A DNA stretch of 25,701 bases, taken from positions 1 to 25,701 of the IMG/VR virus record IMGVR_UViG_3300033141_000944. One strand, written 5' to 3'. The DNA is from a virus. This document shows, piece after piece, positions 7,369 through 23,238 of the stretch. Position 1 is the stretch's first letter. Every line of letters starts with the position of its first letter. Below the pieces are notes generated by a model that saw nothing but the letters and a program-made list of their open reading frames with translations, ran no database searches and was not told the DNA's origin. A program made the translations under genes and the position numbers.

Positions 7369-7415
7369 GAAAAGAAAATAGTGGCTGGATTCAGCATAGA
7401 GCCTAGCCCAGCCAC
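7369..7415 (-). terminator. Probable intrinsic terminator after the major capsid gene
   Basis: GTGGCTGG (7415-7408) / CCAGCCAC (7388-7381) stem followed by TATTTTCTTTT; the loop is long (19 nt). Confidence 0.6.
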
Positions 7416-7435
7416 CGAAGCAACAGATAAAAAGA

Positions 7436-8494
7436 TTACGTATTTACTACTTCAATAGGAGCGAAGAAGTTGATGCCATCGTAGTCTGATCCCGTTGGGA
7501 ACATATCGGCTGGCATAGAAACAACCTTAGTAGTTGAGTACAGGTTGAAACTCAAGTTCTCACAATCATCCTTGATCTTAAGGTCGTAACGTACGCCCGT
7601 CTTAGGTGAACGAACCACCATAGATACGTAGTTAGCAGATGCTTGGATGTCTTCAATCGCACCTTCTTTCCATGTTGAGTTGGTCCACTGAAGCAACTGA
7701 AGCGCTCCAGCTTGTACAGCCCATGAGAATTCGTTACCACCAGCGGCAGCAACAACACGCTTGTCCCATGCAGCGGCAAAACCGAATGCATCAACCATAG
7801 CGCCGATGTCTACACCTTGATTAGCGCAACATCCGTTCTCAACACGACGGAAGTACTTGTAGAGGTCTTGACCACCTACGATAAGCGTGTTAGGGTTGAA
7901 CAATGAAATGTTCTTAGCCAACTCAATGTCTTCCATTGCGTAAGGAGCAAGCTCGTCACTTGTACCAGAACGAAGTGTCTCTACTTCAAGAACGCCAGCG
8001 TTAACGTTTTGTACGTCAGCACCCCATGCGCCCAAGAGAGCAACCGCGTCGTTAGCAGTCTTTGTAGCTACTGCGCGGTCCATCGCGTTAATCATACGCT
8101 CGATCACTTCAAGGAAGTATGTAGCGTTGTCTTTACAGTTCTCACGGAGAGACTCTTCAGAAACCAACTCCTCTACATTGAGGCGGTCCGTTGGATCAAT
8201 AGTGTAAGTCTCGTTACAATCACCACGCTCTGTAGTAGCTACACAGCTAGTAGATGATTGAGTCGTTACTTGATCCTCTTGGATGAATTGGTTATACAAA
8301 AGCTCTACTTGGCGAACTTTGTTTTGACCTGGATGTACGAGTTGTTCTACTCCCCCTGTGTTGTTCACAATGAACTGAAGGAATGGCATTGGTTCGTCGA
8401 TCACACCGCGACCGCTGCCGTTTGTCGAAAATAAGTTGTCGAGACCGTCTTGAATATCAGGACATGCCGTCAACAACGTTGAAAGATATGACAT
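7436..8494 (-). CDS. Major capsid protein (352 aa)
   Basis: Follows the scaffold gene; HK97-like size; structured leader and downstream terminator as expected for a highly expressed gene. Confidence 0.8.
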   Translation of the reverse strand: MSYLSTLLTACPDIQDGLDNLFSTNGSGRGVIDEPMPFLQFIVNNTGGVEQLVHPGQNKVRQVELLYNQFIQEDQVTTQSSTSCVATTERGDCNETYTIDPTDRLNVEELVSEESLRENCKDNATYFLEVIERMINAMDRAVATKTANDAVALLGAWGADVQNVNAGVLEVETLRSGTSDELAPYAMEDIELAKNISLFNPNTLIVGGQDLYKYFRRVENGCCANQGVDIGAMVDAFGFAAAWDKRVVAAAGGNEFSWAVQAGALQLLQWTNSTWKEGAIEDIQASANYVSMVVRSPKTGVRYDLKIKDDCENLSFNLYSTTKVVSMPADMFPTGSDYDGINFFAPIEVVNT

Positions 8495-8515
8495 GTTTAT
8501 AACATTTTAAAAAGT

Positions 8516-8556
8516 AACCTATTCACATTATTTGGCCTGAATAGATTGAGCCACCT
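8516..8556 (-). promoter_or_regulatory. Predicted H-type RNA pseudoknot in capsid gene leader
   Basis: S1 UGGCU/GGCCA; S2 AAUCUAUUC/GAAUAGGUU; 8-nt loop AAUAAUGU; 21 nt of A/U-rich sequence to the AUG. Confidence 0.6.
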
Positions 8557-8623
8557 TAATAAAATGCTGTCTATTATGCCCGATCAGCAAGGCACATAAC
8601 ACGTCTGTCAGTAAACCAGACGA

Positions 8624-9520
8624 CTATCGCCCAGAATTTCTATACTTGAAACCGCCGCCTGTAGCGATCGGCTTATTACTCTTGCTTTGCCCGTTGTTGC
8701 CTGCGGGCTTACGCTCTGGCTTAAAGTTTCCAAGTCCGCTACTAGCAGGCTTGCCGCCATCGTCGTTAATCTTGAGAATCTTGTGCGTTGCCGCTCCTTG
8801 CTTGTATACATCGGTATACGATAGCGATTCCCCGTGCTTCTTAGGGTCAGATACCAACTCTCCGTCCAGACCTCTGATCTCAAGGCCGTAACTAACCTTG
8901 CCTTCATCGTCGGTCGTCTTTTTCAAAGAAGTCTTATACGTCTCGTTCATCTCCGCAAAGAACCCTTTTACCTGCAATTTGTTTGCGTTAGGGTCTAATC
9001 CTAGCTTTGCGTGTGCGTCGTTACGCAACTGATTAAAGATAAACGACTCTTTTTCTTTCTGTGCCCCCGCAATCAAACCGTCTTTCTCCTCAATAGTGCC
9101 CTTAAGCTGAGTGTTGATATTCGTGAGGTCTTGAAGATTCTTTTTTAAATCATGAATCTCCGCAATCTTAGCTTCGAATTCTTTTGTTTGATCTGGGTTG
9201 CCTTTGCTTGCCGCTTCAAGTTTACCTGTAAGCTCCGTAATTTGGTTCTGAAAGTATTGTACCCCCGACTCCATTACGTCCTCCCAGCGATCTGCTTTGC
9301 CGTCTGGAAATACAACGCCAGCATCCTTAAAGGTTTTCTTTGCTGCCGTCTGGTTCGATCCCAAACGCTTTCCGATTAAGTCACGCACTACCTTATGGTC
9401 GCCCGCGTCTTTCACGTTAATTAGGTTTTCTGACCCCCACTTCTGTAGGTCGTCTGCTGTTGTTTCGTCTGTTAAGTCAAAACCTAAGTACTTAACAAAA
9501 TTTACTGCTGCTTCACTCAT
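8624..9520 (-). CDS. Capsid scaffolding protein (298 aa)
   Basis: Central coiled coil (EFEAKIAEIHDLKKNLQDLTNINTQLKGTIEEKDG) and low-complexity G/K/N/P C-tail; directly upstream of the capsid gene. Confidence 0.75.
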   Translation of the reverse strand: MSEAAVNFVKYLGFDLTDETTADDLQKWGSENLINVKDAGDHKVVRDLIGKRLGSNQTAAKKTFKDAGVVFPDGKADRWEDVMESGVQYFQNQITELTGKLEAASKGNPDQTKEFEAKIAEIHDLKKNLQDLTNINTQLKGTIEEKDGLIAGAQKEKESFIFNQLRNDAHAKLGLDPNANKLQVKGFFAEMNETYKTSLKKTTDDEGKVSYGLEIRGLDGELVSDPKKHGESLSYTDVYKQGAATHKILKINDDGGKPASSGLGNFKPERKPAGNNGQSKSNKPIATGGGFKYRNSGR

Positions 9521-9521
9521 A

Positions 9522-9896
9522 TTATTCTGTTAATTTTGCCTTAATCTTTGTAATCAGTTTCACTTCCCCTGTGTTGCTATGGTTGCCTTTCAATGAAAGT
9601 GACTTTGCAAGCGATACCCAGTCATCCCGCTCATACTTTTCCTGAAGCTCTTCCACTCCCATGCTTAGCACGTCCTCGCGAATGTCTTTAATCTCTTCCT
9701 TGAATTCAGGAGTTACCACATCTACTTCTATCTCTGCAACTGGTGGCGTGGGATTAACTGCTGGTTCACTAAGTGCTGGAACTAAACGCAAGTTATGCTT
9801 GTGCATATAAGCCGCGTTATTAGCAAGACGGTCAGAGATGCCGATAATACGCTCGGCGCCGTCCTTGTCTGTTCTGATTACTTTTACCTGTTTCAT
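9522..9896 (-). CDS. Hypothetical protein with P/V-rich linker and small helical C-domain (124 aa)
   Basis: First gene after the promoter at 9902-9933; the C-terminal helices resemble HeH/Rho-N-like domains (tentative). Confidence 0.65.
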   Translation of the reverse strand: MKQVKVIRTDKDGAERIIGISDRLANNAAYMHKHNLRLVPALSEPAVNPTPPVAEIEVDVVTPEFKEEIKDIREDVLSMGVEELQEKYERDDWVSLAKSLSLKGNHSNTGEVKLITKIKAKLTE

Positions 9897-9901
9897 AATA
9901 A

Positions 9902-9933
9902 CAAATATAGTTTATTCATGTTTAAATATCAAA
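9902..9933 (-). promoter_or_regulatory. Bacteroidota-type promoter for the scaffold/capsid block
   Basis: TTTG (9933-9930), 20 nt, TATATTTG (9909-9902); ATG only 5 nt further on, so the leader is very short or absent. Confidence 0.7.
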
Positions 9934-9962
9934 TACTTAGCAAGTCTACCTAAAGTAAAGGT

Positions 9963-10904
9963 TTAAGCCACTAGCCCAAACTCGTCTATCTCGGTTTGTG
10001 TTGGGGTGTAATTGCCATTGTTAATATTCCGCTGTATTACGCTCTTTGGCACCTTGAAAATAGACACAGGCATCAAAGAATGATTGCAATTATACCCACC
10101 GCAAAAGCTAAATATTGTCGTTGAGGTGGTTAAAGGCCGTTGCCCTTGCCACTTTTTACTTGGATCGGGGTTTCCTGCCCCTCTTTGTTCGTTTGTAACC
10201 CATAGCTCTACTTCTTTTTTATGAAAATACTTTCCGTCCCGAGCCTCACAGAACTTGCGTGTGTCCTTGACTCGCCCTCCTGTGTAGAAATACCACTCTA
10301 CGCCCTGTAGGTTGGCGCTCTGCTGTGTAAACTCTCTATCTGATGTTGAGAATTGATCTCGTATATTGTTCTCTCTACTTGTGTAGCTTGATAAAGCCCC
10401 TAGCCTATCATCGTTGCCAGTTATCAAAACGCTCATATTAGCAAAGAGGTCTTCTAATAGTCCGTTCTGGCTTACCGCGTTATCCATTAACGCCTTTATA
10501 GGGCTAAACAATGGCTTATTTAAGCTATCGCCAACCAACAATAATAATGAAGCGTCGCGACTGCTCTCAAAAACACCCTTACTAGCTGGCGTGCTTTTAA
10601 AATCGCCTATCTCTTCCTCGAATAATTGCTTGGTTAGTTTTGCTTGCTTGTCGAATTCACTACCAAAGTTCTTAACAATGTTGGTGTACCTGTCGGTCTT
10701 CATGAAACGGCGTATCTCGCCTAAGATACTATTAACCGTCTTTAGGTTTCCCGCCGTAGGCTTGATGCGGTCGTTCTTGATGTCTAGTTTGCCTAGTAAG
10801 GAATTGATTTTTGCCAATAATCGCGGCTCGAACTTAGCCAATGAGTCGTAGAAGTCCTGCGGTACGGTATCTAACCTATCTGCTTTTTCAGTAATCGCTG
10901 ACAT
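9963..10904 (-). CDS. Minor head protein, MuF/SPP1 gp7-like (313 aa)
   Basis: Follows portal; WYFYTGG..DTRKFC and GGYNCNHSLMPV motifs are characteristic of this family. Confidence 0.8.
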   Translation of the reverse strand: MSAITEKADRLDTVPQDFYDSLAKFEPRLLAKINSLLGKLDIKNDRIKPTAGNLKTVNSILGEIRRFMKTDRYTNIVKNFGSEFDKQAKLTKQLFEEEIGDFKSTPASKGVFESSRDASLLLLVGDSLNKPLFSPIKALMDNAVSQNGLLEDLFANMSVLITGNDDRLGALSSYTSRENNIRDQFSTSDREFTQQSANLQGVEWYFYTGGRVKDTRKFCEARDGKYFHKKEVELWVTNEQRGAGNPDPSKKWQGQRPLTTSTTIFSFCGGYNCNHSLMPVSIFKVPKSVIQRNINNGNYTPTQTEIDEFGLVA

Positions 10905-10906
10905 TA

Positions 10907-12793
10907 TTATACGTCAATTGGAGGTGCTATAGGTGCTTGTGCGTTTCTTGCCGACTCGGCCGCTTCTCTTGCTACCGCTTCAAGCTGCTCTACTTGGTCT
11001 GATAGTGGCAATTCTAGGAAATCAGGGTTGTCTCGTACCAGTTCTGACACAAACGATAGCCCCGAACGGTGCAAGATGATCTGCCAAGGCTCAATCTCAC
11101 CTCTACTAGCGCCCATATCAATGTCTTCTTGGCTTGCCGTAAGTAGTTTATCAGCGTCAGTGAGCAAGTTGAGCACCTTAATGCTTGAGTTTTCACCGTG
11201 GAACGCGCTCTTAATGTACATTCTAAGCAACTCAGCAATAACTGGGTACGGCACATTACCAGATTCTGAAGCCTCTTTGATGTCTGCCAAGTAATCCGAC
11301 TGCGTTTTGAAATCAAAGTCTTTAGGCTCGATGATGTCAGGCATATTAAAGCGGTTTTTATATCGCATAATGCCAGTCATTTTGAACAAAAACCGTACAA
11401 TCTGCCAAGTCTGACCCGATGGAGGTGCTACAAACGAAATCAAATTCTTTAAATCAAGCGCTTTAGCTGTAGCTGTGGCGTCTTCACGGCCCTTAGCTTC
11501 GCCCATAGTAGTATTGAGGTGTAGAAGCCCTCTAGCCTTGTTGATATTGTTTTCAACCTCTTCTCTAAGCATCTTAGGTGCGTCGAGCGGTGGAGCAACA
11601 AACTTAATAGGCTCTGTAATGTCTTTATCACCAGCAGGGTTGAACTGATCTGGCGGCGCAATTAACATCTCGCCAAATGGAGCCATACGGCTAATCATAC
11701 CCTGCCCGTTACATTTTGGGCAAATCTTATTATATTCATCCCCTTCTACTGTATGGCCTTTTAAATATCCTCCTGAGCATTTAACGTTGTAAGCCTCAGT
11801 AATTTCTTCGTATTCACACTGGCTGGCCAAAGTGATCTTATGAGGAAACACCACCTTAGCCTTAATCATCTGCAAGTAGCCGTTATCTAAAATAGCTTCC
11901 TCTAGCAGCGCTGTGCCTAGCATGAATGGGGACTGGTAAATAATCTGATTATCGTCAATACCTGCAACGCCCATGAGTTTAATAACTGGAACCTCCCCAG
12001 CCTCGTGCTCAAACCACGGTATTACGTTATATTCGTTGTCTTCTTTCTTGCCTACTTGGATAATACGGTAAATCCACTGATCGTCATATAGCTCATAGAT
12101 ATAACCGTCCTTGACTGGCTTTTTGTCAATTATCACAATTGACTTCTCAGGCGTCTCGATCATTGCGTAAACGCCGTCTTTATACCCTACCACTCGGTTA
12201 ATGTCGTAGTAGTAAGGGAGTGGTTCAGGCAAATCAACACCTGAAACAACCAATTCACCATCCTCGTTCTCTACTAATGGAATGTCTTTAGGGCGGACAG
12301 CAATAACGCCGTTAGCATCCTGAGCCTTGATTGTGGGCAAGAAATTACGAGCATAGTTCATCAGAGACCCATATTGGCCGTACTCCTTAGTTACATATTG
12401 CTCGTATGTTGTCTCAGTGTTTACAAAATCGTCATCCTCGGCCTTGTAAGAGATATTGAAATTACCCTGTATGAAACAACGTCCTACAGTATTAACGTAG
12501 TCCATCGCTACTGGACCTGTAATTAACTTGTAATTAGCCTTTAACCATTTCGCTTCCTTATCGGTTTGGTTTGGTGAGCGGTTCTCGAACAGTTGCATAG
12601 GCACTACTCGGTTATCAAAGTGCATGCGCACAGCGTCATACAGCCTAACCATGTAGTTGTAATTTGGATAGTACTCAGCTTTATATTCTTTGATATAAGC
12701 GTTCTTATCCTTTTTTAGCTCATTTTCACGCGCCTCACGTACTGTGATTGTATGATTGAGTAACGCTTCTATTTCCTGTCCTTCGAGTGCCAT
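10907..12793 (-). CDS. Portal protein (628 aa) with a CxxCxGxG insertion
   Basis: Size, position before MuF-scaffold-capsid, acidic low-complexity C-tail, and RGREDATATAKALD wing/clip-like segment. Confidence 0.8.
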   Translation of the reverse strand: MALEGQEIEALLNHTITVREARENELKKDKNAYIKEYKAEYYPNYNYMVRLYDAVRMHFDNRVVPMQLFENRSPNQTDKEAKWLKANYKLITGPVAMDYVNTVGRCFIQGNFNISYKAEDDDFVNTETTYEQYVTKEYGQYGSLMNYARNFLPTIKAQDANGVIAVRPKDIPLVENEDGELVVSGVDLPEPLPYYYDINRVVGYKDGVYAMIETPEKSIVIIDKKPVKDGYIYELYDDQWIYRIIQVGKKEDNEYNVIPWFEHEAGEVPVIKLMGVAGIDDNQIIYQSPFMLGTALLEEAILDNGYLQMIKAKVVFPHKITLASQCEYEEITEAYNVKCSGGYLKGHTVEGDEYNKICPKCNGQGMISRMAPFGEMLIAPPDQFNPAGDKDITEPIKFVAPPLDAPKMLREEVENNINKARGLLHLNTTMGEAKGREDATATAKALDLKNLISFVAPPSGQTWQIVRFLFKMTGIMRYKNRFNMPDIIEPKDFDFKTQSDYLADIKEASESGNVPYPVIAELLRMYIKSAFHGENSSIKVLNLLTDADKLLTASQEDIDMGASRGEIEPWQIILHRSGLSFVSELVRDNPDFLELPLSDQVEQLEAVAREAAESARNAQAPIAPPIDV

Positions 12794-12876
12794 TACGCAG
12801 CTTTCAAATAAGGTAGAATAATTGTGCTTTGACAGCCTGACTTTTTGCCGCCACAGCGCATCTTAATAATCTTCAT
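12793..12876 (-). CDS. 27-aa coupled mini-ORF (MKIIKMRCGGKKSGCQSTIILPYLKAA)
   Basis: ATG overlaps the GT stop (ATGA) and its TAA overlaps the portal ATG (TAATG); it fills the gap exactly. Confidence 0.6.
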   Translation of the reverse strand: MKIIKMRCGGKKSGCQSTIILPYLKAA

Positions 12877-14051
12877 ATCGTTGCAAAATTTTTCTGTTGT
12901 CCTTCGTGTACCGTCATCTTACGACCCAATGCCTTAGATAATTTCTTAGCCAATGACATTTCAGCGTCTCGGTTAACGTCGTCAAGTACAAATATAGCAT
13001 CCTTGTTAAATAGGTCTAGGTTCTCTATAAGTTTGCCTCGGTCGCAAATCCGAGCAGGAGGGCCGTCAATCAAATAAACATCTGCATTCTTAATGTCCTG
13101 CATCTTGTCTACGTCGTACCAGTCATCTACAATAGGGGCTAGTATGGTGTTTTTGTGTGATCTTAACCACTTAGGGTTATGCTCAATAGATGTTAGGTCA
13201 TAATTTTTAGCAATCTCACGAGACGCATTACCAGCACCCAGTTCAACTACCTTCCCTCCCTTAACGTTTCCAACTAACCATCGTAATAAATTCCACTCGA
13301 TAGATGCATCGCCTAGCTTGTTTCTGTCCGCACGTTGTGCTGGGAAGTGCTGTAGCTTAGGAATAGAATTGATAATATCGGTCTGTACCGAGTCGTCCTT
13401 AGCTACGCTTTTCCAAATAGCTAAATCCTGACTTCCTTTTTGCTCTATAATCCACGCTCTGTTACGTCTTAAAGTAATTTGCGGCAATGACAAATAGTGC
13501 AAGTGTCTAGCCATCTGTGGGTCTAGCATGTTCTTTTGATCCTTGAACAACTCCCAATCGAACTTCAATGTGTTGGTGTGGAACGCCATAGTTCCCGTTC
13601 CTAGCATGTGTACTGATTGAGTCTTATTCCATCGCTCGTAGCAGTAAAATATTTGGCGCGACTTGTCGCGGTAGTACGATTTAATAGGGTGTCTACGGTA
13701 GATTGTAGCGTGAACGCCTACAACAGCCTTACGATAGTGTAGGTCGATTTCGTTGGTCAAGTATGATACATAGTCCTTTGGATACTTTATATCGTCGTCC
13801 ATTGAAAAGTAATAGCCATCAACGTCCTTAGCTTTATAGAACTTGCCTAAGGCACGTAAATCTCCATCAGCTTCCGAGGATAAGATAGGCGTGATTTTCT
13901 CGTGTTTTAGAAACTCGGGAACCTTCTTGTAGTTGTTGAGGTATACGTAAATCTCGTCGAACTGGTCGATAATAGATTCAATGGTAACCTTTAGAAACTC
14001 CTCTCTCGCTGGATGCGAAGCTATACCGCCAATGACTTTACTTGTTCGCAT
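12873..14051 (-). CDS. GT-A (GT2-like) glycosyltransferase fused to class I SAM-dependent methyltransferase (392 aa)
   Basis: N-domain IASHPAREEFL..IYVYLN..YYFSMDDDIKYPKDYV (DxD); C-domain VVELGAGNAS, SIEHNPKW, YLIDGPP, VLDDVNR. Confidence 0.8.
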   Translation of the reverse strand: MRTSKVIGGIASHPAREEFLKVTIESIIDQFDEIYVYLNNYKKVPEFLKHEKITPILSSEADGDLRALGKFYKAKDVDGYYFSMDDDIKYPKDYVSYLTNEIDLHYRKAVVGVHATIYRRHPIKSYYRDKSRQIFYCYERWNKTQSVHMLGTGTMAFHTNTLKFDWELFKDQKNMLDPQMARHLHYLSLPQITLRRNRAWIIEQKGSQDLAIWKSVAKDDSVQTDIINSIPKLQHFPAQRADRNKLGDASIEWNLLRWLVGNVKGGKVVELGAGNASREIAKNYDLTSIEHNPKWLRSHKNTILAPIVDDWYDVDKMQDIKNADVYLIDGPPARICDRGKLIENLDLFNKDAIFVLDDVNRDAEMSLAKKLSKALGRKMTVHEGQQKNFATI

Positions 14052-14895
14052 GCTTGCTCTTTAGTAATGGGGCAACCTTATACATGTGTCGCGTGTTCAT
14101 TTGCTTGCAAATGTTTCGCATATGACGGTCGTACAACTCTTTATAGCGAACCTTAACAAGGCGCCGCCCTCCGTAGATAGCTAAAATATACCATCCCTCG
14201 AATACCTCGGAGATAGTCTCTTTGTTCTTCCATCCAAAATAGATATGTCTTCCACCATGAGCATCGGTGTTCATGCCTAGCTGCGCCATAGTGCCTGAGT
14301 AAATCAACTCATCTGGTATACTGCCTCCCCATCTCATTGTTAGCTTACGCTTGTCAAACTTCTTATCGTAGTTTTTAGCTACTTTATCGAAGAACGCTTT
14401 GGCCTCATCGCATTTTCTAACAAATACGTATGAGCTTTGAATTGCAGGCAATACCGCATCCTCTTCTAAGTCAAAGAACTCCCAAATATCATCATTGGTA
14501 GCCCAAATAGAGTAAGGTATGTCGTCTGATTTACCGCCTTTACCGTTGACTTGAGTATAGAACCAGCCTTCTTTGGCTGTTAACTCATCCATAAGCGGAT
14601 CGAGGGACTTTAATGCACATCCGTCAACATCTAAGTACAAGTTCTCCTCATAAGGCATGTATTTGTACATGTTGCACTTAATCTGTCCAGCATCTGTGTG
14701 TTTTTTTTGTAGAGGTACCAGCTTATCGAAAACGTCCCAATTCTCGGCTGGCATTGGCTTTAATTTGAAGTTATGAAGGTCATGCACCAAAGCTACCTTT
14801 AATTTAGAGGTAGCCTTGATGCTTAAAGCCATATTGTAGGCCATATTGTAATAGGCCCTGTCGCCAAAGGCGAAAAGTACAATTCCTTTGCTCAT
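14038..14895 (-). CDS. GT-A fold nucleotide-diphospho-sugar transferase (GT8/GT77-like, 285 aa)
   Basis: KGIVLFAFG..AYNMALSIK and YEENLYLDVDGC (DxD after a hydrophobic strand); TAATG-coupled to the major tail gene. Confidence 0.75.
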   Translation of the reverse strand: MSKGIVLFAFGDRAYYNMAYNMALSIKATSKLKVALVHDLHNFKLKPMPAENWDVFDKLVPLQKKHTDAGQIKCNMYKYMPYEENLYLDVDGCALKSLDPLMDELTAKEGWFYTQVNGKGGKSDDIPYSIWATNDDIWEFFDLEEDAVLPAIQSSYVFVRKCDEAKAFFDKVAKNYDKKFDKRKLTMRWGGSIPDELIYSGTMAQLGMNTDAHGGRHIYFGWKNKETISEVFEGWYILAIYGGRRLVKVRYKELYDRHMRNICKQMNTRHMYKVAPLLKSKHANK

Positions 14896-15437
14896 TATTG
14901 ACCGAAAATTCCAGCAGGTGCTGCGTGTAAGGTCGGATCAGTTTTTGATCTCCAACGCAATTCGCCCTCCCATTTTGACTGCTCGTTTTCTACGTCGTTA
15001 AACCCGCCAATAAGGCGTGAGTTACCTTGAATGAACTTTACTTGATCCGATTCGCAGTAGTACAACAATGCTCCACCGAACACTTTTCCGTTAGAGCTAT
15101 TCATTGCATTGTACGCATCGATGTTCAACGCATTAACGTTTCCATCAATCCAAGATATAGTACGATCATAGTTAGATACAGCGTCAGTTTCGCCTGCAAC
15201 CAAAGAAGCCTGTGAAATCTCACTAGGAGCATTCACAAGTACCTTAAGGCTTTTGTACAATACCGCGTCGCCAGCAGCAAGTAGAGCATTAATCTCCGTA
15301 TCGTCTGAAGGGTCTGTTGGTGTTGCACCACATTTGAATAGCATGACTTCAGGAACTACCCCAGTGAGAGGGTCACAGTCGATATTCAACACCTGCTCTT
15401 CGAGGTCGTCACACGTATAGCATGATTCGCATCCCAT
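14895..15437 (-). CDS. Major tail tube protein (180 aa)
   Basis: Size, acidic beta-rich sequence (SNYDRTISWIDG...SKWEGELRWR), own promoter and structured leader; Cys-rich N-terminus. Confidence 0.65.
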   Translation of the reverse strand: MGCESCYTCDDLEEQVLNIDCDPLTGVVPEVMLFKCGATPTDPSDDTEINALLAAGDAVLYKSLKVLVNAPSEISQASLVAGETDAVSNYDRTISWIDGNVNALNIDAYNAMNSSNGKVFGGALLYYCESDQVKFIQGNSRLIGGFNDVENEQSKWEGELRWRSKTDPTLHAAPAGIFGQ

Positions 15438-15464
15438 GATTGTAAATTATTAAATTCAAAAATC

Positions 15465-15500
15465 TTGGGTCACTATATGGCCTCCCAATCTAGGCCACCT
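15465..15500 (-). promoter_or_regulatory. Predicted H-type RNA pseudoknot in major tail gene leader
   Basis: S1 UGGCCU/AGGCCA; S2 UUGGG/CCCAA; 8-nt loop UAUAGUGA; 27 nt of A/U-rich sequence to the AUG. Confidence 0.6.
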
Positions 15501-15515
15501 AAAAGACGTGTGTAA

Positions 15516-15547
15516 CAAATATACTAATTACTAAATACTTACGCAAA
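15516..15547 (-). promoter_or_regulatory. Bacteroidota-type promoter for major tail-GT-portal block
   Basis: TTTG (15547-15544), 20 nt, TATATTTG (15523-15516). Confidence 0.7.
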
Positions 15548-15564
15548 CCACTTAAAGTAATGGT

Positions 15565-16065
15565 TTAACTGAAGTCTAGTATAGTGTACCATGTAATTAA
15601 CTCAAATTCGTTGGTTCCTACTGTGGGATTAGCGCCATTAACCTTGAAAACTAAAGAGTCGTTCTCTACAAATTTCTGCTGTGGTTTTCTGTCCGATTGC
15701 TCTACGTACTCTGTAATGCTTTGCGCGATAGCTAAATCAAATTCATGGAGCGCCTTAGTTCCTGTTGAGTGCCAAATTCCAGCTAAATCAGCGATAACAT
15801 AAGCGCCGCCGCCTCCAATGTTTCGAAGAACTGCAAAAACAGGATTGATAAACGTGTTGGCTCCTTGAGCTGGTAGAATCTCAATAGGTGTAGTCCCTGC
15901 CGCTAGGAATTGAGCCGAGCTGATCTGTGTTGTAATCTTAGAGTAGGTAACTAAATCAAGTGCATCGCCTTGGTAGTCTTTACCTGCTCTAACAATATGA
16001 GTAATATCCCCCGATTCTGGTGCTGACGGCAGGATATCTAATTGTGATAGTGATTTATCTGGCAT
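15565..16065 (-). CDS. Tail-associated structural protein (166 aa)
   Basis: N-terminal KSLSQLDILPSAPESGDITHIVRAG resembles the K-I-S-x-L-P..D...V fibre-attachment motif; the rest is beta-rich. Confidence 0.55.
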   Translation of the reverse strand: MPDKSLSQLDILPSAPESGDITHIVRAGKDYQGDALDLVTYSKITTQISSAQFLAAGTTPIEILPAQGANTFINPVFAVLRNIGGGGAYVIADLAGIWHSTGTKALHEFDLAIAQSITEYVEQSDRKPQQKFVENDSLVFKVNGANPTVGTNEFELITWYTILDFS

Positions 16066-16067
16066 AA

Positions 16068-17735
16068 TTAAGGGTTTATGATGATCTTACCACCATCGGT
16101 TTGTGTTATAAATAAACTGTTGTCCTCCTCCTGTACTAAGAAGTTTGAGTTTGTACATGAGGTGGCGAGACCTGTGCAGTCTCTAAATGTAATAGCTGGA
16201 TCATTCTGCTGCGGGTGAGTAATAATGTTCATGACGTGCGTGGCGTTGCAGTTTAGCCCGTCTGTATAGGTTGGTGTTAATTCGTCGTCTTGTAAGTGGC
16301 GTCTAACGCCGTCGATTGCCCAGTACTTAAACCCTAACATCAATGACAAGAAGTCGTACACATACTCAGGCTGGAAATCAATTTGAAACTCCTTGATCTT
16401 ATCGCGGTCATAGTACACGTTTAAGTAAGAGCCGTTGCTAAGTTTATTAGCTACTCGTGTTCCTGAATATGTCGCGCGACCAATCTTAGACTTTAGCCGT
16501 ATAGTAGGCGAAAACCCGCCATCAAAGTTAAAGCCCGCCGCTGGTCCATTATGGCAAGCGTTGACAAGGTGCGTGCAATGGTGATTGCCTAGATTTATTC
16601 TCGGTCCCTCCTCGTTGCATACGTAGTCCTCTGTATTGGCTTTAGTTACTGTAATCGAGTCAATCGTTATATCCGTAGCTCCTGCGCCTGCTGTGAGTGT
16701 TGTTAGGTTTAAATCTGTGTCGTCTGGTGTGATTTGGAAGTTATATGTGCCTACTGCGTTAATTGACGGACCTGCTACGGTTCCAATCTTAACGCTTAAC
16801 TGAGTGTCTGTGACAGCCGAAACAACTACCTCAACGTCATACAATGTACCAACTTCATACTCTGTAAATATATGTTCAGCTAGACCAATGTCGCCAGCGC
16901 CGCTAGAATTATATTCTAATCCACCTCCCGTAATTTGCCATGTTCCTACAGTACCGTTAGTCAAGAGCCAACCAGTAGTATTTTCATCACCCGAAAAGCC
17001 GTCTATATCAAAGCTGTTATTATACAGGAAGTTCTGACCACCTGAATTTATGTTAGGGTCTGCTATGCAAATCGTATAACACCCCTCGTCGATTCCTAGT
17101 TGAGTCCAATCAATATAGTTAGTGATACTATTGTCAATGATTTCAAATGCGTCGGGATTGTCTGTGATATTCAACTGCTCTATTACCGTTCCTGTGGAAT
17201 CCTTTATAAGTATCTTTGTGTGCTGAGGAAAAACCTCGTACGCATCTACGCGACTTAAGCACCCTAACACATCGTCGTCACCAAACACCCGAACGCCGTC
17301 CGCTGAGGCTTGGATATAGAATGTGTAATCACCTATAGCGCTAATCTCAAATGCATTACCTCCTAACGTAAGGTCAAAAACTCCACCACTCAAAGAATCT
17401 ACCGAGACATTAACCTGATAGTAGTTGCCTATTACGAAAACGCCGTTTTGAAATGATGTTGAAGCACTGGCCGCGCCGTTGAGCACCTTACATAGTTGCC
17501 CACCGCCTACCGTCCATGTGGGACTTACAATAGTCCAAGGACTGCCACCACCAACCGTAAGACTGAACGATGGATCATCAACCACCTGTGGAGCAAATCC
17601 CGAAATGTCGATAAGGTTCTGGAACTGCGTTACGTCGCTCTGATTAACTAACTGATCGATGTCATTCTCATCGCAACAATCACACTCATCCGCAGCTATG
17701 TCAAAAGGGTACGCTTGGTTTCTTAGGTAAATCAT
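16068..17735 (-). CDS. Tail-tip protein (Dit/baseplate-like) with two carbohydrate-binding-like modules (555 aa)
   Basis: Two related modules (DDPSFS..W..W.V.GGGQL..GNYYQV.V.V and NNSFD..GW..WQITGGGL..GTLYDVEV.V..ITIDSITV), plus a C-terminal tail-type domain. Confidence 0.6.
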   Translation of the reverse strand: MIYLRNQAYPFDIAADECDCCDENDIDQLVNQSDVTQFQNLIDISGFAPQVVDDPSFSLTVGGGSPWTIVSPTWTVGGGQLCKVLNGAASASTSFQNGVFVIGNYYQVNVSVDSLSGGVFDLTLGGNAFEISAIGDYTFYIQASADGVRVFGDDDVLGCLSRVDAYEVFPQHTKILIKDSTGTVIEQLNITDNPDAFEIIDNSITNYIDWTQLGIDEGCYTICIADPNINSGGQNFLYNNSFDIDGFSGDENTTGWLLTNGTVGTWQITGGGLEYNSSGAGDIGLAEHIFTEYEVGTLYDVEVVVSAVTDTQLSVKIGTVAGPSINAVGTYNFQITPDDTDLNLTTLTAGAGATDITIDSITVTKANTEDYVCNEEGPRINLGNHHCTHLVNACHNGPAAGFNFDGGFSPTIRLKSKIGRATYSGTRVANKLSNGSYLNVYYDRDKIKEFQIDFQPEYVYDFLSLMLGFKYWAIDGVRRHLQDDELTPTYTDGLNCNATHVMNIITHPQQNDPAITFRDCTGLATSCTNSNFLVQEEDNSLFITQTDGGKIIINP

Positions 17736-17793
17736 TGCTTTAAGTTATGAGTGCTAACATTTTGTTACACAACACTATAAAGATAGTGAAATT

Positions 17794-18165
17794 TTAGTAT
17801 TTGCTAGTTGATATAGTAGTGTTTAGTACCAATTTATTGTCTTCAATGTGCGTGCTATAAATCTGTCTGCGGAATAACCCGTTGAAGTTCAGCAGTATTT
17901 CAATATGTTGCGTTGAATCCTTTAACGTTGATTCGCTTTGTATGTGGTATTGGGCATTTTCAAACAACACAATAGACTTAGAGCCGCGTAGCTCGTCACT
18001 AAATGCTGTGTGTTGGTCGTTAAATATTGTCAGTTGATCCAATTTTACGTCTGTTGTTACGGTCGCATGAACATATCTAGGAGTATCCTTGTCACATGCG
18101 GCAAATAATGCCATCACCAACACTAAGAGAACGGTGTTTCTGTTTCGTTTGATATTAGTTGCCAT
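17794..18165 (-). CDS. Lipoprotein (123 aa precursor)
   Basis: From ATG 18165 (ORF track starts at 18210): MATNIKRNRN-TVLLVLVMALFAA-C-DKD; basic n-region, hydrophobic h-region, lipobox FAAC; overlaps the upstream gene by 43 nt. Confidence 0.7.
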   Translation of the reverse strand: MATNIKRNRNTVLLVLVMALFAACDKDTPRYVHATVTTDVKLDQLTIFNDQHTAFSDELRGSKSIVLFENAQYHIQSESTLKDSTQHIEILLNFNGLFRRQIYSTHIEDNKLVLNTTISTSKY

Positions 18166-20072
18166 GTTGTTTCTCCTGTTATTAGGTTCCTTGTTATTTC
18201 TTGCGGCCATGCTCCGAGCACTTTAGCGTGCCCAAACTCAACATCGTTAAATACCTGTATCTGTCTAGCGGGGTTTTCTTCCATATCTCGCCATAATGTC
18301 TCGTCTATAGCGTGCTCAAACTGGTAATTAATAGCAAAGTATTCTGAAGCCTCTTGGTCTGTTGTGGCCTCTCCTGCTGTTACCGTATTACGAAGCTCAA
18401 AGAATGTATCAGAACCGCCTGAAGATGCAATGTAAGTAGCTGACCACGGAGCGCCCGTCAATGTTGCTACGAGTCGTAGTTGTGCTGTGTTACCTTTTTT
18501 TAGGTATGCTGGTTGATCTTGCCAATCCAAACTAAAAACTAAATTAGCGGCCACTTGCTGCCCAATAGCTAATAAAGTATTGGAAACTATTTCGCCTGCT
18601 GGGGTGATTTGCTGGACAATTGCTGTCAAAGTAATGGTCTCTGGAGCACCTGGATTTGTTGTTACATCTACAAAATATTCACCATGAAATCTATAAACTC
18701 CCGTTTCCTGTACCGTGAAGTCATAGCCTACCGTGTCCCATCGTGAGTTATCATTGAAGAATGGCAGTGGTGAATCAACGTCCAACTCTGTTGGGTTCCA
18801 CTCTGTACTGACCGCAAAAGGCCCAAAAGTATTGGTTGTGCCAACCAAAAACTTGTCGGTAGTCTGTACAAAATTGTTAGTAATGTTGCCTTGCAACCTA
18901 TATCTGTCGATTACACGAATGTTTATAAGCTCAGGGTTATAGATGTACGGACCTCCCGTTACAGGGTCTGTAAGTCGCTCTGATGAGGCTTTAAGTGTAT
19001 TTTGATCGTACTGAACAATAAAAATGTCATCGTCCTTGTCCTCGTCTCCGTCAATTATGGCCTTAGAGATCAGATTGTGGTCAATAACCCAATCAGTAAA
19101 CAACTCCAATGAAGTACCGCCTGTGCATTGCCCTTCTACGTTCCATGTTTCTTCTACGTGTGTGATAAGCGGAATGTATGGAAAGTCGCTCATTACGTCG
19201 TAAACTGGCGTAAGCTCTTGTACGCCGACCTGATCCTTATCTGCATCGCTTGAGCCTACCTTTACGTTAGAATAAAAGCGTTGTATGTCTGTTGTTCTTT
19301 GGATAGCACGCACGTCATCAAGGCGAACCGTAGCTGACTGGGTAATAAATGACTCTTCCTCAAGCCTCAATGTAGATACGTTGTCTATCGTAATGGCGAA
19401 AAACCATAGATTGTACTTCTTAGAAATGTTCTCAAATAGGTCTTGTAGTGAGATGTAAGGGTCTTGCCATGACTGCTGACGCATATTTAGGCCCGTTGTG
19501 ACGCAATAACGCTCATCGTCTGGTAGATTATCATACCATGTGGATTCAAAGTTAATTGTGTCCTCTGATAACGCTTTAACCAAATCCGTAAAACAATCTT
19601 TTAGGTCGTATGCTTTTACTTTTCCAGCTAAATTACTGTTATCACTAGGGTCAAACGTCTGCAACTCAATTGGAGTGCTAGGCGTGAATGTGCCGCCGTT
19701 TATATCGATACCTTCACCAATAAAAAACTCTTTATTCTGTTGGTCTACAATTTTAGCGCCGAAACCTTCATCTTTAAGCTCTACTGTTAACTGCTTTTCC
19801 GATGAGTTGTCCTCTACAAATGAGTCAATAGTAAACAACTCAACCTCTCCTTTAACTGCACTATAAGCCTCGGTGTCGTCCTTTCGTAGGATAATTTCAA
19901 CATCTACCTTGCCGCAAGCTCCTAAAGCGGTGCGTTGGTCACGCATATATTTAGCAGCCTCGTCGCCTAACTCCAATGGCCCTACCTGTTGAACGGTAAA
20001 CACCTTTAGAGTATCATTACGCTTGATTTGCTTGCTTAGGTCACGCCAGTTAAGATAACCCTGCATCAGCAT
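18123..20072 (-). CDS. Tail-tip/baseplate hub protein with C1q-like beta-sandwich insert (649 aa as annotated; native start probably GTG at 20137)
   Basis: First gene after the tape measure gene; F.ND..W....YDFTVQETGVYRF is a C1q/BclA-like motif; 5' end disrupted by a 38-bp duplication. Confidence 0.7.
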   Translation of the reverse strand: MLMQGYLNWRDLSKQIKRNDTLKVFTVQQVGPLELGDEAAKYMRDQRTALGACGKVDVEIILRKDDTEAYSAVKGEVELFTIDSFVEDNSSEKQLTVELKDEGFGAKIVDQQNKEFFIGEGIDINGGTFTPSTPIELQTFDPSDNSNLAGKVKAYDLKDCFTDLVKALSEDTINFESTWYDNLPDDERYCVTTGLNMRQQSWQDPYISLQDLFENISKKYNLWFFAITIDNVSTLRLEEESFITQSATVRLDDVRAIQRTTDIQRFYSNVKVGSSDADKDQVGVQELTPVYDVMSDFPYIPLITHVEETWNVEGQCTGGTSLELFTDWVIDHNLISKAIIDGDEDKDDDIFIVQYDQNTLKASSERLTDPVTGGPYIYNPELINIRVIDRYRLQGNITNNFVQTTDKFLVGTTNTFGPFAVSTEWNPTELDVDSPLPFFNDNSRWDTVGYDFTVQETGVYRFHGEYFVDVTTNPGAPETITLTAIVQQITPAGEIVSNTLLAIGQQVAANLVFSLDWQDQPAYLKKGNTAQLRLVATLTGAPWSATYIASSGGSDTFFELRNTVTAGEATTDQEASEYFAINYQFEHAIDETLWRDMEENPARQIQVFNDVEFGHAKVLGAWPQEITRNLITGETTWQLISNETETPFS

Positions 20073-20114
20073 GCCGGGTCACGCCAGTTAAGATAACCCT
20101 GCATCAGCATGCCG
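20039..20114. repeat. Perfect 38-bp tandem duplication
   Basis: GGTCACGCCAGTTAAGATAACCCTGCATCAGCATGCCG at 20039-20076 and 20077-20114. Confidence 0.95.
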
Positions 20115-20133
20115 TCTAAATACAACTCTGCTC

Positions 20134-23100
20134 TCACACGTTACCCCTTCCTTTGTAGTTAGATTTTTTCAATTGATCTACGATTCTATCACCTATCTGG
20201 TATATTGCTTGCTGTGTTTGTCTCTCGCTTCTCAGTAGGTTGCTATCCGTAAAGCCTGATCCTTTTTGTACGTTGTTGGTTGTTTCGTATTTAAGATATA
20301 GTTCTCTTTGTCGGTGCTCGTCCATCATGTTAGTGATTCGAGAGCCTGATACACCTTGTCTCATAATACGACGTGTTTCTGAGGCTGTTTTTACCTGTGA
20401 ACCTCTAGGCAAATATACAATCTCTGGTCCTTCTTCACCAACAAGCGCCATACCTTCAGGAGAATAATTAGTACCCTTGGCAAACTCAGGCAGTGGTTGT
20501 GAGTTAATAAGTGCTATCTGTGCAAGTGTCTGCGCCGCTGTAATTCCCGCTAAAATACCAGTAGGATCGACCGTTAACGCTTTGGTAAATGCTACAGCAC
20601 CATTAATAAGGGCCTCAAACGTTGCAATTGCCCTCTCGCGTTCTGCTTGTTCGCGTTGTAGTTTTTTAGTTTTCTCGTCTGCCTCGCGTTCAATGCGCTC
20701 TCTTTGCTGTATGAGCTGCTCTCTTTGAGCTTCGCTAAGGTTTTCCGCTTCTAGTTTCTCGTCGATAGCTTTTAGTTCGGCGTCCTTTTCCTCTTCAATC
20801 GAGTTTATTTGCGCTTCTGTTTGTGCTTGTAGAGAAGCTATAGCAATATCACGTAAAGTTCCTGCAAGCTCTAACGCTGCGTCCTTACGTGCTTGGGTAA
20901 TCTCTTGTTCACGCGCTACCTCTTGTTGTCTTATGCCTAGTCTTATGTTAGCTAGTTCTTGCTCTGCCTGTACTGTACTCTCGCCAGCGGCCTTGCGTGC
21001 AGCTATAATGGCTTCCAGCTTCTCGATTTCTATCTGTAGCTCTGCATCTGCTAACTCTTCTGCGTTCGTTAAGGTGTTTGTAGCTGATAGCGTCTCTAGC
21101 TCGGCCTTTTTATTGATCTTGCTAATTTCTAACTCTAGTTCTGATTCCGCTAAAGTTTTACGTTGCTCTAATATTTGAGCATCTACATCTTGCGTTGAAA
21201 GACCAGCATTTAGTAATACCTGTCTTCTCTGTTCTAGCCTGTCTAACTCGATTCTGTTTAACTCAACTGTAAGCTCCTCGGCTGCTCTGATACGTTGTTC
21301 AGCTTCAAATTCTGCCGCAGATGCGTTTTGTTCTACGCCTAACTCGTCAAACTTGCGATTAATGTCTAGCTGATCCTGCGCAAACTTCTCACGTACTAAT
21401 TTTTTACCTTCCTCGCTCTTTTCAACTGCTTCTAATTCCTTCTGGAAGCTCAACTCAAGTAAAGCTAATTCACGCTCTCTCTCGTCCTCTAGTGCGTTCG
21501 CTCGTAAACTTGCTAGCTTCTCTTCAAGTTTTCTCCGTTCATTAGCTTGCTTTTCTCTTTGTTTGTCAGATTTTGAAGTGTCTGCAACCTCCTCTTCTGG
21601 TGGTATTACCGTGGTTAATCCCGCAAAAGCTCCTGTTTGAAGATTGGATATTGCGTCTTGTCTAGCTTGCTCCCTTGCATCCACCTCTGCTTGAATAGCA
21701 TCAACTACTTTTTGCTGTAATTCTAAAGAGTTTTCTGCACGTGTTCTCTCTGCGCCGCTTGTTGTGAGTACTTGGTTTAGAAGTTCCTTGTATTTTTGGC
21801 GCTCTATTTCAATGTTTGCCGTGGTTTGCTCGGATGCGGCTTTTATTTCTTCTGCGCTAGCGCCTGAAGCTATAGCTAGGTCCTCGGTCGCAAATACAGA
21901 CTCTGCCGTTTTCTCTACGTACTTATCCAGAGTCGCGTTAATCCCTGCTAATTGCTTTTCTGCTTCGCTTAACACTCCTGATCCCCCTGAAAAGCGTTCG
22001 AATGTTGCCGTGAAACTATTTAGTGATTCTAAAAGCTGTTGATTGCTGGCTGTTGCATCGTTTGCGGTAGTTAGAAATTCAAATAGAGACTGTTTTAGCT
22101 TTTCATATCCTACCAAGGTTTCAGTTAGCGGACCTGTACCGTTGTCTAATGACAAGACTAAAGACTCATAAGCGGCGTCTGTCTTAGCTGTTTGAAATTC
22201 TAGTGTTTGGCTTGCTATTGCGGCCTGCTCAACTGCGGTATTGGTTCCTGTTACTGCCTCTGTTAATTTCTCAAATCTATCTACGTTTTGAAGTAGGATT
22301 GCTCCCGCCTTTTGACCGCCCTCACCGAATAACTTAAACTGTGTTGTGCCATCGTTGGCAATCTTACTAAGCTCCCTAAGCCTAGTTGCTACTGGTAAGG
22401 TTGTATCCCCTAATATGTCGAGGTTTACCCCAGCTGCTTCAAGCCTTTGTATAGTGTCCTTTGGTAGCGCTTCTGCTGCGTTCAATCTATTGAAGACAGC
22501 GTTTAGGGCAGTTCCCGCTTCAGCTCCAGTTAATTGCTTATCCGCAAGCGTCTCAGCTAATGCAATAGCCTCTTCCGTGCTAGCATTACTCTGGCCAAGG
22601 ATAATACCAGACCTATTGAGTGTTTCCGCTAATTGATCTACTGGGGCGGCTCCTGCTTTAGACCCCGCAGCAAGTGCATTAACAATTTCTCCTGCTCTCT
22701 CGGCTGGCTCGTTAAACTGTGCTAGAATTGTGGTAAGTGATCCAACGGACTTTTCAAGGTCATCACCTGACGCTTGAGATAGTAATAATGCCTGCTCCGT
22801 TACCTTGGCAAGAGCGTCTGCATCATCAAGAAGTAGTGGTTGCGCAGAACCAACGAGCTTAAATGCATCAACAATTTCGGTGGCAGACTTTGCAAATTGC
22901 GGGCCTAAGCCAATAGCTTTTTGCCTGAAGAAGTCTAAGTCTTCACCTGTGGCTCCTGTAATAGCGCTCAATTCAGCTACAGCGGTGTCAAACTTATTAA
23001 TGATCTCGACAGCCTCTTTTACCGCTCTACTTACTCCAGCGATCAACCCGCCAATAGCAAATACAGGAAGTAAGTTGTTCTTGATTGTACTCCCCAACTT

Positions 23101-23238
23101 GTTAAACGCGCCGTTTAGTCTGCCTGTTACCTTTTTCTCGGTGTTGTCTGCAAATTTCTCTGCGCTTTGACCTGCTTTGTTTAGGTCTTGCCTTAAACAT
23201 TCAGCATCTCCGCATATCTGTAAAACTAATTCGCTCAT
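20134..23238 (-). CDS. Tail tape measure protein (1034 aa)
   Basis: TP901-type N-region (FDTAVAELSAITGATGEDL...), Ala/Glu-rich helical body, C-terminal FAKGT..EGMALVGEEGPEIV motif; follows the chaperone genes. Confidence 0.95.
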   Translation of the reverse strand: MSELVLQICGDAECLRQDLNKAGQSAEKFADNTEKKVTGRLNGAFNKLGSTIKNNLLPVFAIGGLIAGVSRAVKEAVEIINKFDTAVAELSAITGATGEDLDFFRQKAIGLGPQFAKSATEIVDAFKLVGSAQPLLLDDADALAKVTEQALLLSQASGDDLEKSVGSLTTILAQFNEPAERAGEIVNALAAGSKAGAAPVDQLAETLNRSGIILGQSNASTEEAIALAETLADKQLTGAEAGTALNAVFNRLNAAEALPKDTIQRLEAAGVNLDILGDTTLPVATRLRELSKIANDGTTQFKLFGEGGQKAGAILLQNVDRFEKLTEAVTGTNTAVEQAAIASQTLEFQTAKTDAAYESLVLSLDNGTGPLTETLVGYEKLKQSLFEFLTTANDATASNQQLLESLNSFTATFERFSGGSGVLSEAEKQLAGINATLDKYVEKTAESVFATEDLAIASGASAEEIKAASEQTTANIEIERQKYKELLNQVLTTSGAERTRAENSLELQQKVVDAIQAEVDAREQARQDAISNLQTGAFAGLTTVIPPEEEVADTSKSDKQREKQANERRKLEEKLASLRANALEDERERELALLELSFQKELEAVEKSEEGKKLVREKFAQDQLDINRKFDELGVEQNASAAEFEAEQRIRAAEELTVELNRIELDRLEQRRQVLLNAGLSTQDVDAQILEQRKTLAESELELEISKINKKAELETLSATNTLTNAEELADAELQIEIEKLEAIIAARKAAGESTVQAEQELANIRLGIRQQEVAREQEITQARKDAALELAGTLRDIAIASLQAQTEAQINSIEEEKDAELKAIDEKLEAENLSEAQREQLIQQRERIEREADEKTKKLQREQAERERAIATFEALINGAVAFTKALTVDPTGILAGITAAQTLAQIALINSQPLPEFAKGTNYSPEGMALVGEEGPEIVYLPRGSQVKTASETRRIMRQGVSGSRITNMMDEHRQRELYLKYETTNNVQKGSGFTDSNLLRSERQTQQAIYQIGDRIVDQLKKSNYKGRGNV

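Follow-up and report, generated by a model that had tools for sequence, protein, structure and literature searches.

The locus considered here raises the question of what kind of element precedes two virion genes of an uncultured virus and at which level of gene expression it acts. The window, i.e., the whole stretch of DNA that was analysed, is the entire IMG/VR record IMGVR_UViG_3300033141_000944, a linear sequence of 25.7 kb which was estimated to be about 60% complete and which holds all of its genes on the minus strand. An initial annotation had proposed twin H-type pseudoknots in the messenger leaders of what were called the major capsid and major tail genes. Both elements proved to be H-type RNA pseudoknots of the sense strand which are conserved and covary; they recur at the same place in a family of related phages, and in the capsid leader they are accompanied by a second knot and by a helix which covers the start region. 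Whether they act at the level of translation is weighed below against the alternatives.

Covarying pseudoknots in the capsid and tail leaders

The strings quoted in the initial annotation were found exactly at 8556-8516 (-) and 15500-15465 (-), and the pairings, the connectors of 8 nucleotides (nt) and the spacers of 21 and 27 nt are all as described there. In the proximal capsid-leader pseudoknot (PK-B), stem 1 (S1) is formed by UGGCU (8553-8549) with GGCCA (8537-8533) and stem 2 (S2) by AAUCUAUUC (8547-8539) with GAAUAGGUU (8524-8516), whereby loop 1 (L1) is C8548, loop 2 (L2) is A8538 and loop 3 (L3), the 8-nt connector, covers 8532-8525. The outer one or two A-U pairs of S2 may not form, because L1 with only 1 nt has to span an S2 of 9 base pairs (bp), the outermost pair of which is broken in three of six relatives. 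The tail-leader knot pairs UGGCCU (15497-15492) with AGGCCA (15483-15478) in S1 and UUGGG (15488-15484) with CCCAA (15469-15465) in S2, with L1 at 15491-15489 and its 8-nt connector L3 at 15477-15470. Nested folding, which cannot show pseudoknots, returns S2 in the capsid and S1 in the tail unit. Within the window the pattern GGTGGC-N4-25-GGCCA has four matches as against 0.10 expected, and two of these are the leaders. A third copy of the words (AGGTGGC-N7-AGGCCA-AA-GTGA, 24486-24467 (-)) was judged to be a chance occurrence, since it lies in coding sequence, namely within the open reading frame (ORF) 24603-24061, lacks an S2 partner and is not conserved in a relative with 82% identity, where the substitutions track codon third positions; the fourth match is a GGC-rich coding run and not a leader element.

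The loop sequences of the two leaders had been reported to differ completely and to be complemented each by its own downstream segment, which was put forward as internal covariation. Homologous leaders bear this out, as pairing in S1 and S2 is maintained by compensatory changes in capsid and tail leaders alike. For the capsid gene, six leaders were aligned, i.e., that of the window and those of the loci L013, L014, L078, L079 and L081, the capsid proteins of which are 61-78% identical. Here, 94.4% of the cells are paired as compared with 21-48% when the partners are slid; S1 of PK-B is paired throughout (100%), with one variable pair alternating between U-G, C-G and U-A, and S2 is paired in 89% of cells, whereby five of its nine pairs are changed on both sides. 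Four distinct tail leaders gave 93.2% paired cells (18-49% with slid partners) and contain a double change from G-C to A-U in each of S1 and S2. Hence the classical attributes of an H-type knot are all found, in that the S1 loop pairs downstream, both helices covary and the loop lengths are sterically able to cross the grooves. The U-run following S2, which had been counted as a part of the element, did not stand up to this comparison; it is unconserved and lost in L004, L007 and L008.

To place these knots in a wider context a capsid-protein profile was used, which yielded 63 viral loci, and look-ups added five; the family so obtained comprises about 60 distinct capsid leaders and 37 distinct tail-tube-like leaders. 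One to three tandem H-type knots are present in nearly all of the capsid leaders, and at least two descriptor matches were obtained for 67% of them, whereas shuffled leaders or random genome windows gave 5-7%. When capsid and tail knots were aligned jointly, MAFFT shifted S2 out of register, as it did S1 of the distal capsid knot described below, and partner-permutation tests were used instead. When hairpins were chosen blind to S2, the S1 loops scored on average 7.99 against their own downstream segment and 5.97 +/- 0.17 against permuted partners, with none of 1000 permutations as high. The median geometry is an S1 of 5 bp, an L1 of 2 nt, an S2 of 6 bp, an L2 of 0 nt and an L3 of 6 nt, and L3 consists of 49% A as compared with 32% A in the whole leaders. 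At the edges of the Watson-Crick cores, 83 G.U were counted as against 51 A.C (p 0.007), where composition predicts a ratio of 0.9, and this preference indicates RNA on the sense strand.

The placement of the knots is specific. A single knot is found in 73% of the 37 tail-tube-like leaders at the stringent threshold and locates to the same place as in the window, and at this threshold the corresponding values upstream of the capsid gene and of six other gene families are 67% and 8-27%, respectively. Knot enrichment upstream amounts to 67-88% for the capsid gene, 73-76% for the tail-tube-like gene and 8-39% for the six other families. The gene after the capsid gene, with knot matches upstream in 58%, was rejected as a further carrier, these matches being in reality intrinsic terminators. 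The last capsid knot lies at a median of 24 nt from the AUG, and from the end of the tail knot to the AUG 19-28 nt were found (median 23), with a TAnnTTTG box 13-27 nt before the knot in 29 of the 37 tail leaders. In many relatives the capsid gene forms a unit of promoter, knots, gene and terminator. In the clade of the window, the capsid knots are without a promoter of their own and reside 1.3 kb into an operon, past the promoter at 9933-9902 and two genes; hence it is the distance to the AUG which is conserved and not the distance to the 5' end.

The idea of a shared cis element consequently holds for the capsid gene and for a gene with a probable tail-tube fold, whereby the naming of the two genes has to be corrected in part. 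The capsid protein model (HK97 fold), when compared with the Protein Data Bank (PDB) using Foldseek, matched phage capsids with a probability of 1.0 (E 6e-8), and the name major capsid gene stands. The label major tail is not confirmed. The 180-aa ORF has only seven homologues, its protein model is poor with a predicted local distance difference test (pLDDT) value of 55, the best structural matches are tail-tube or Hcp chains with Z values of 5.9-4, and the leads from the Atlas point to the tail-tube families PF25595 (0.88) and PF06199 (0.86). The product of this ORF is probably a tail-tube-fold protein, an identification which is weak and which is derived from the model and these leads.

A second capsid knot and a helix over the start region

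The capsid leader had been described as a single-knot element. While PK-B was recognised correctly, a distal pseudoknot (PK-A) and an anti-start helix, termed X:X', had been overlooked. S1 of PK-A is formed by UGCCU (8594-8590) with GGGCA (8581-8577) and its S2 by GCUG (8588-8585) with CAGC (8569-8566), L3 being UAAUAGA (8576-8570). Among relatives, S1 occurs in the compensatory variants UGCCU/GGGCA, UGUCU/GGACA, UGUCCU/AGGACA and UGCCU/AGGCA; S2 is invariant in the window's clade, and the S2 sequences of distal knots are varied family-wide. The helix X:X' comprises 9 bp, formed by X (AGCAUUUUA) and X' (UAAAAUGUU), encloses PK-B and joins the tail of PK-A to the bases shortly before the AUG. 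The word UAAAAUG of X' is invariant in the six close leaders and is present also in the distant locus L011. X shares 3 nt with the 3' arm of PK-A S2, and by virtue of this overlap, loop, X and X' show a three-way complementarity which, judged from the sequences, would be typical of a switch.

Family-wide, the helix was tested by scoring the best helix between the 24 nt before PK-B and the stretch from PK-B to the AUG. The mean best score is 14.4, whereas partners swapped between leaders gave 12.0 +/- 0.3 (none of 500 as high), the own partner reversed 12.2 and the own partner shuffled 11.8 +/- 0.3 (Wilcoxon p 3e-4). A strong helix, i.e., one with a score of at least 16, is present in about 36% of the capsid leaders as compared with 15% of the controls. 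Between clades the sequences of X and X' are unrelated, as documented by GAGGUUUAC/GUAAACCUU in L021, AAAUGAAUUAA/UUAAUUCAUUU in L073, CAUAAUCACAG/UUGUGAUUAUG in L080, where the AUG itself is covered, and UGGGGUUUAGUU/AGCUAAACUUUA in L063, and the distance from the end of X' to the AUG is usually 2-9 nt. Only near-invariant sequences were kept in register by a second clade alignment (A9), which was uninformative. In the tail leaders, anti-start helices score no better than those with permuted partners.

Further observations concern the same leaders. The distant L011, the tail protein of which is 33% identical, carries at 10925-10990 (+) two tandem capsid-leader knots with a common GUGGU..ACCAGAAC and different S2, and a 10-bp helix (CUUAGCAUUU/AAAUGUUAAG) there joins the S2 3' arm of the first knot to the bases before the AUG. 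In the window, a 6-bp hairpin (CGUCUG-N9-CAGACG, 8622-8602 (-)) is found one base past the UAG stop of a 298-aa gene, just ahead of PK-A, and has no conserved counterpart in L013 or L014. An upstream AUG within X' opens a two-codon mini-ORF (AUG UUA UAA, 8505-8497 (-)) which ends 2 nt before the capsid AUG. This upstream AUG is invariant in the clade, the mini-ORF is not, and the conservation hence probably serves the X:X' helix. A near-palindromic octamer precedes the knots of both leaders by a few bases, its orientation being opposite in the two, namely AGACGTGT before the capsid knots (8606-8599 (-)) and ACACGTCT before the tail knot (15511-15504 (-)). It is largely kept in close relatives, with ACGTGT or ACACGTCT in most and GATGTGT and ACACATCT in the L081/L012 sample, and might serve as a DNA operator, as an initially transcribed signal or as an RNase site.

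A shared frame and the level of action

For 20 genomes in which both leaders are available, the S1 arms and L3 of the tail knot were compared with those of the capsid knots. The similarity is 0.48 within a genome, 0.31 towards the capsid knots of other genomes (none of 2000 permutations as high) and 0.30 towards the tail knots of other genomes, and for the S2 arms no within-genome excess was found (0.34 versus 0.35). Examples are L024 with the frames ACG-AGGCU..AGCCU-GCAUAG and ACG-AGGCU..AGCCU-GCAUAC, L035 with the L3 pair AACAAAC and AACAAA, and the window itself, where AGGUGGCY..AGGCCA is common to both leaders. The fact that S1 and L3 are shared within a genome and S2 is different favours a common trans-acting reader, which would couple the capsid and tail genes, and lends indirect support to the common regulator that the initial annotation had listed among its options. 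Selection for such a reader of the S1/L3 face would be a simpler account than gene conversion, as the latter must skip the S2 5' arm, which lies between the S1 arms.

Bacteroidota largely ignore Shine-Dalgarno pairing. An even chance is given here to the reading in which the knots act in cis on translation, as an operator or enhancer located at the 5' border of the site where the ribosome lands. Each compact unit combines a G+C-rich S1 (about 5 bp) with an S2 of some 6 bp, to which the 3' part of the S1 loop contributes; the loops are short, and the A-rich L3 of about 6 nt would lie in the S1 minor groove. The last knot ends at a fixed distance of 20-28 nt before the AUG, with an unstructured, A/U-rich initiation region after it, and in the suggested mechanism the knots would act at translation initiation. 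In the capsid leader, PK-A and X:X', the latter covering about positions -15 to -7 before the AUG, would compete for PK-A's own 3' strand, whereby the start region would be free when PK-A is folded and paired when PK-A is open, which would constitute a two-state switch. The reader was suggested to be, most simply, a phage protein which recognises the S1/L3 face on both messengers. In this extended form, which we regard as tentative and possible rather than probable, a putative phage RNA-binding factor would read the genome-specific S1/L3 triplex face on the capsid and tail-tube messengers, and knot stabilisation would free (capsid) or expose (tail) an initiation region without Shine-Dalgarno sequence, coupling head and tail synthesis.

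Several points weigh against the operator and its reader. The switch is not general to the family, as a strong X:X' is found in only about 36% of the capsid leaders and is absent from the tail leaders, and in the window the overlap of X with PK-A S2 is limited to 3 nt, so that partial coexistence of the two is possible. Only in L024, L080 and window-like genomes was the frame exactly identical or reused elsewhere in the genome, and no RNA-binding protein emerged as a candidate. The background of the descriptor scan is high in coding sequence, and individual distant instances may be false. Finally, the host is probably a member of the Bacteroidota, an assignment for which the promoter motifs are the sole basis.

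Among the alternatives, constitutive stabilisation or insulation of the messenger survives best and is considered unlikely. A rigid triplex knot near the 5' end would block 5'-end-dependent or 5'-to-3' RNases and would also prevent upstream RNA from pairing with the A/U-rich start region, thereby raising the output of high-copy virion proteins with no need for a regulator. The position of the knots in many relatives, 13-27 nt past the TAnnTTTG box and hence near the 5' end, is in line with such a role, as are the capsid gene often being a short promoter-to-terminator unit and the A-rich L3 with its compact geometry, which fit a mechanically stable knot. Set against this, the capsid knots of the window's clade are operon-internal with no recognisable promoter, the variable that is tightly kept is the distance to the AUG, and this reading would leave both the helix X:X' across the start region and the shared, genome-specific frame of S1 and L3 unexplained.

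Action on transcription, be it as an antitermination RNA resembling put or as an attenuator which decides on read-through into or past the capsid gene, appears improbable. It would suit knots that lie just downstream of promoters and a terminator that follows directly after the capsid gene in most relatives, and the tandem layout recalls the put sites of phage HK022, which consist of two stems. A terminator scan detected none in either leader, none lies between the knots and the gene, and no G+C-rich hairpin with a conserved U-run, as would mark an intrinsic terminator or attenuator, was found upstream of the gene. The U-run after S2 is not a constant feature, the S2 hairpin taken alone is A/U-rich with a 14-nt loop and would make a poor terminator, and a fixed distance to the AUG is unexpected for an element acting on the polymerase.

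Small-ligand riboswitches with pseudoknot aptamers of the preQ1-I or SAM-II kind are very improbable. Although a small H-type knot with an A-rich L3 adjoining the initiation region is what such aptamers resemble, and the start region is alternatively paired in the capsid leaders, no loop or junction nucleotides are conserved family-wide, S1, L3 and S2 all varying, no aptamer of Rfam was matched even with permissive filters, and a virion structural gene would be an unusual target for metabolite control. A signal at the DNA level (an operator or late-promoter element, for which AGGTGGC...AGGCCA with its palindromic GGCC could be a protein-binding inverted repeat and next to which the conserved octamer stands in both leaders) or a chance resemblance of two intergenic regions is hardly tenable, given that S2 covaries despite no sequence being shared between the leaders, that G.U is preferred over A.C on the sense strand, that the helices survive wobble changes which in duplex DNA or on the opposite strand would produce mismatches, and that the pattern is expected 0.1 times per window.

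Genomic setting and relation to known RNA elements

The features of the window are collected in Table 1. Of 20 ORFs searched against PHROGs and Pfam, names were obtained solely for the portal and the tape measure, for a weak GT2 and for a virion protein. The gene order in 12873-23238 (-) is unusual in that the tape measure and distal tail genes lead. Genes of 555 and 166 aa, the tube-like gene and a pair of genes that includes a weak GT2 glycosyltransferase follow, and the portal precedes the capsid module, which comes last. The Bacteroidetes promoter pattern TTTG-N17-23-TAnnTTTG has 7 matches in the window as against 1.1 expected, two of them on the gene strand (15547-15516 and 9933-9902). 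These two promoters are alike (TTGC.TAAGTATTT..TATATTTGTTA), and 5 nt separate the end of that at 9933-9902 from the AUG of a 124-aa gene, which implies a nearly leaderless messenger. The stem of the capsid terminator opens with GGUGGCU, a heptamer identical to the 5' side of PK-B S1. With three family members as queries, no blastn or tblastn match was obtained among 50,697 phage records, and no related cultured phage came to light; the lineage is uncultured and marine.

Table 1. Positions of leader elements, genes and transcription signals in the window
Feature	Position	Strand	Basis
PK-A, distal capsid-leader pseudoknot	8566..8594	-	sequence and relatives
X, 5' strand of the long-range helix	8560..8568	-	nested fold and family-wide tests
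PK-B, proximal capsid-leader pseudoknot	8516..8553	-	sequence and alignment of six leaders
X', 3' strand of the long-range helix, ending 6 nt 5' of the capsid AUG	8501..8509	-	nested fold and family-wide tests
A/U-rich 21-nt spacer from PK-B to the capsid AUG (8494)	8495..8515	-	sequence
Major capsid protein gene (HK97 fold)	7436..8494	-	AlphaFold model (pLDDT 75); Foldseek against PDB
Intrinsic terminator (hairpin and U-run) 3' of the capsid gene	7381..7416	-	G+C-rich hairpins with U-runs at the same place in relatives
Bacteroidetes-type promoter TTTG-N20-TATATTTG	15516..15547	-	ends 18 nt before the tail knot
Tail-leader pseudoknot	15465..15497	-	sequence and relatives
A/U-rich 27-nt spacer from the tail knot to the AUG (15437)	15438..15464	-	sequence
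180-aa gene, probable tail-tube fold (weak identification)	14895..15437	-	model, structural matches, Atlas leads
Portal gene	10907-12793	-	recognisable
Tape measure gene	20134-23238	-	recognisable

The likeness in geometry to the leader knot of gene 32 of phages T2 and T4, which had been pointed out before, is real. Both are compact H-type knots of phage leaders in which the two stems measure about 5-7 bp, L1 is very short and L3 has 6-8 nt, and both reside tens of nt 5' of the AUG and are followed by an unstructured A/U-rich stretch (21-27 nt here). The gene 32 knot belongs to an autogenous translational operator and is thought to be a protein nucleation site, whereas for the leaders described here the sequences are unrelated, no binder is known, the genes encode a capsid and a tube-like protein instead of a single-stranded DNA-binding protein, and tandem units, two leaders per genome and an anti-start helix in the capsid leader come in addition. 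As the regulated genes are not RNA-binding autoregulators, the leaders are not members of the gene 32-type operator class. With phage Mu com/mom and lambda cIII, the competition between PK-A and X:X' shares the logic of a helix-sequestered start region that becomes accessible once an upstream structure or a binding event prevails; those systems are simple hairpins in single genes acted upon by the known factors Com or RNase III, whereas the factor proposed here is hypothetical. The E. coli rpsO (S15) operator, RF00114, is likewise an mRNA pseudoknot which is read by a protein and controls 30S loading on its own messenger, but it includes the Shine-Dalgarno sequence and the AUG, whereas the knot described here ends about 23 nt upstream and gave no cmscan match to it. 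The preQ1-I aptamer, RF00522, resembles the knots in its size of about 34-40 nt, its H-type fold and an A-rich L3 in the S1 minor groove, and differs from them in its gene context and in that here no ligand-contact nucleotides are conserved, no cmscan match was obtained and the S2 5' arm borders on the S1 3' arm (L2 of 0-1 nt).

Membership in an already described Rfam family, which the initial annotation had named as the outcome that would remove novelty, was not found, the cmscan matches being noise only. With Rfam 15, the whole window gave no match at E up to 1 and either leader none at E up to 10 with permissive filters; eight related loci at the gathering threshold gave only a tRNA, and a literature search for the leader-pseudoknot motif found no description of it. 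The knots constitute an uncatalogued RNA family of the leader-pseudoknot type, whereby the two-gene arrangement with a shared frame is unusual.

We know of no account of how Bacteroidota phages drive and balance the very high expression of their virion proteins. What is described here is an RNA module of about 35 nt, supported by covariation, which recurs before the two highest-copy structural genes across an uncultured marine phage lineage, at a constant spacing from the start codon and, in the case of capsid leaders, together with an alternative pairing of the start region, and which is testable with simple reporters. It is a candidate Rfam family and a compact part for expression control in Bacteroidota. 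If it is true that a phage factor reads the knots, they would represent a new class of post-transcriptional late-gene regulon in Bacteroidota phages, with the capsid leader as a protein-driven pseudoknot switch. The module suggests that head-to-tail stoichiometry may be set after transcription.

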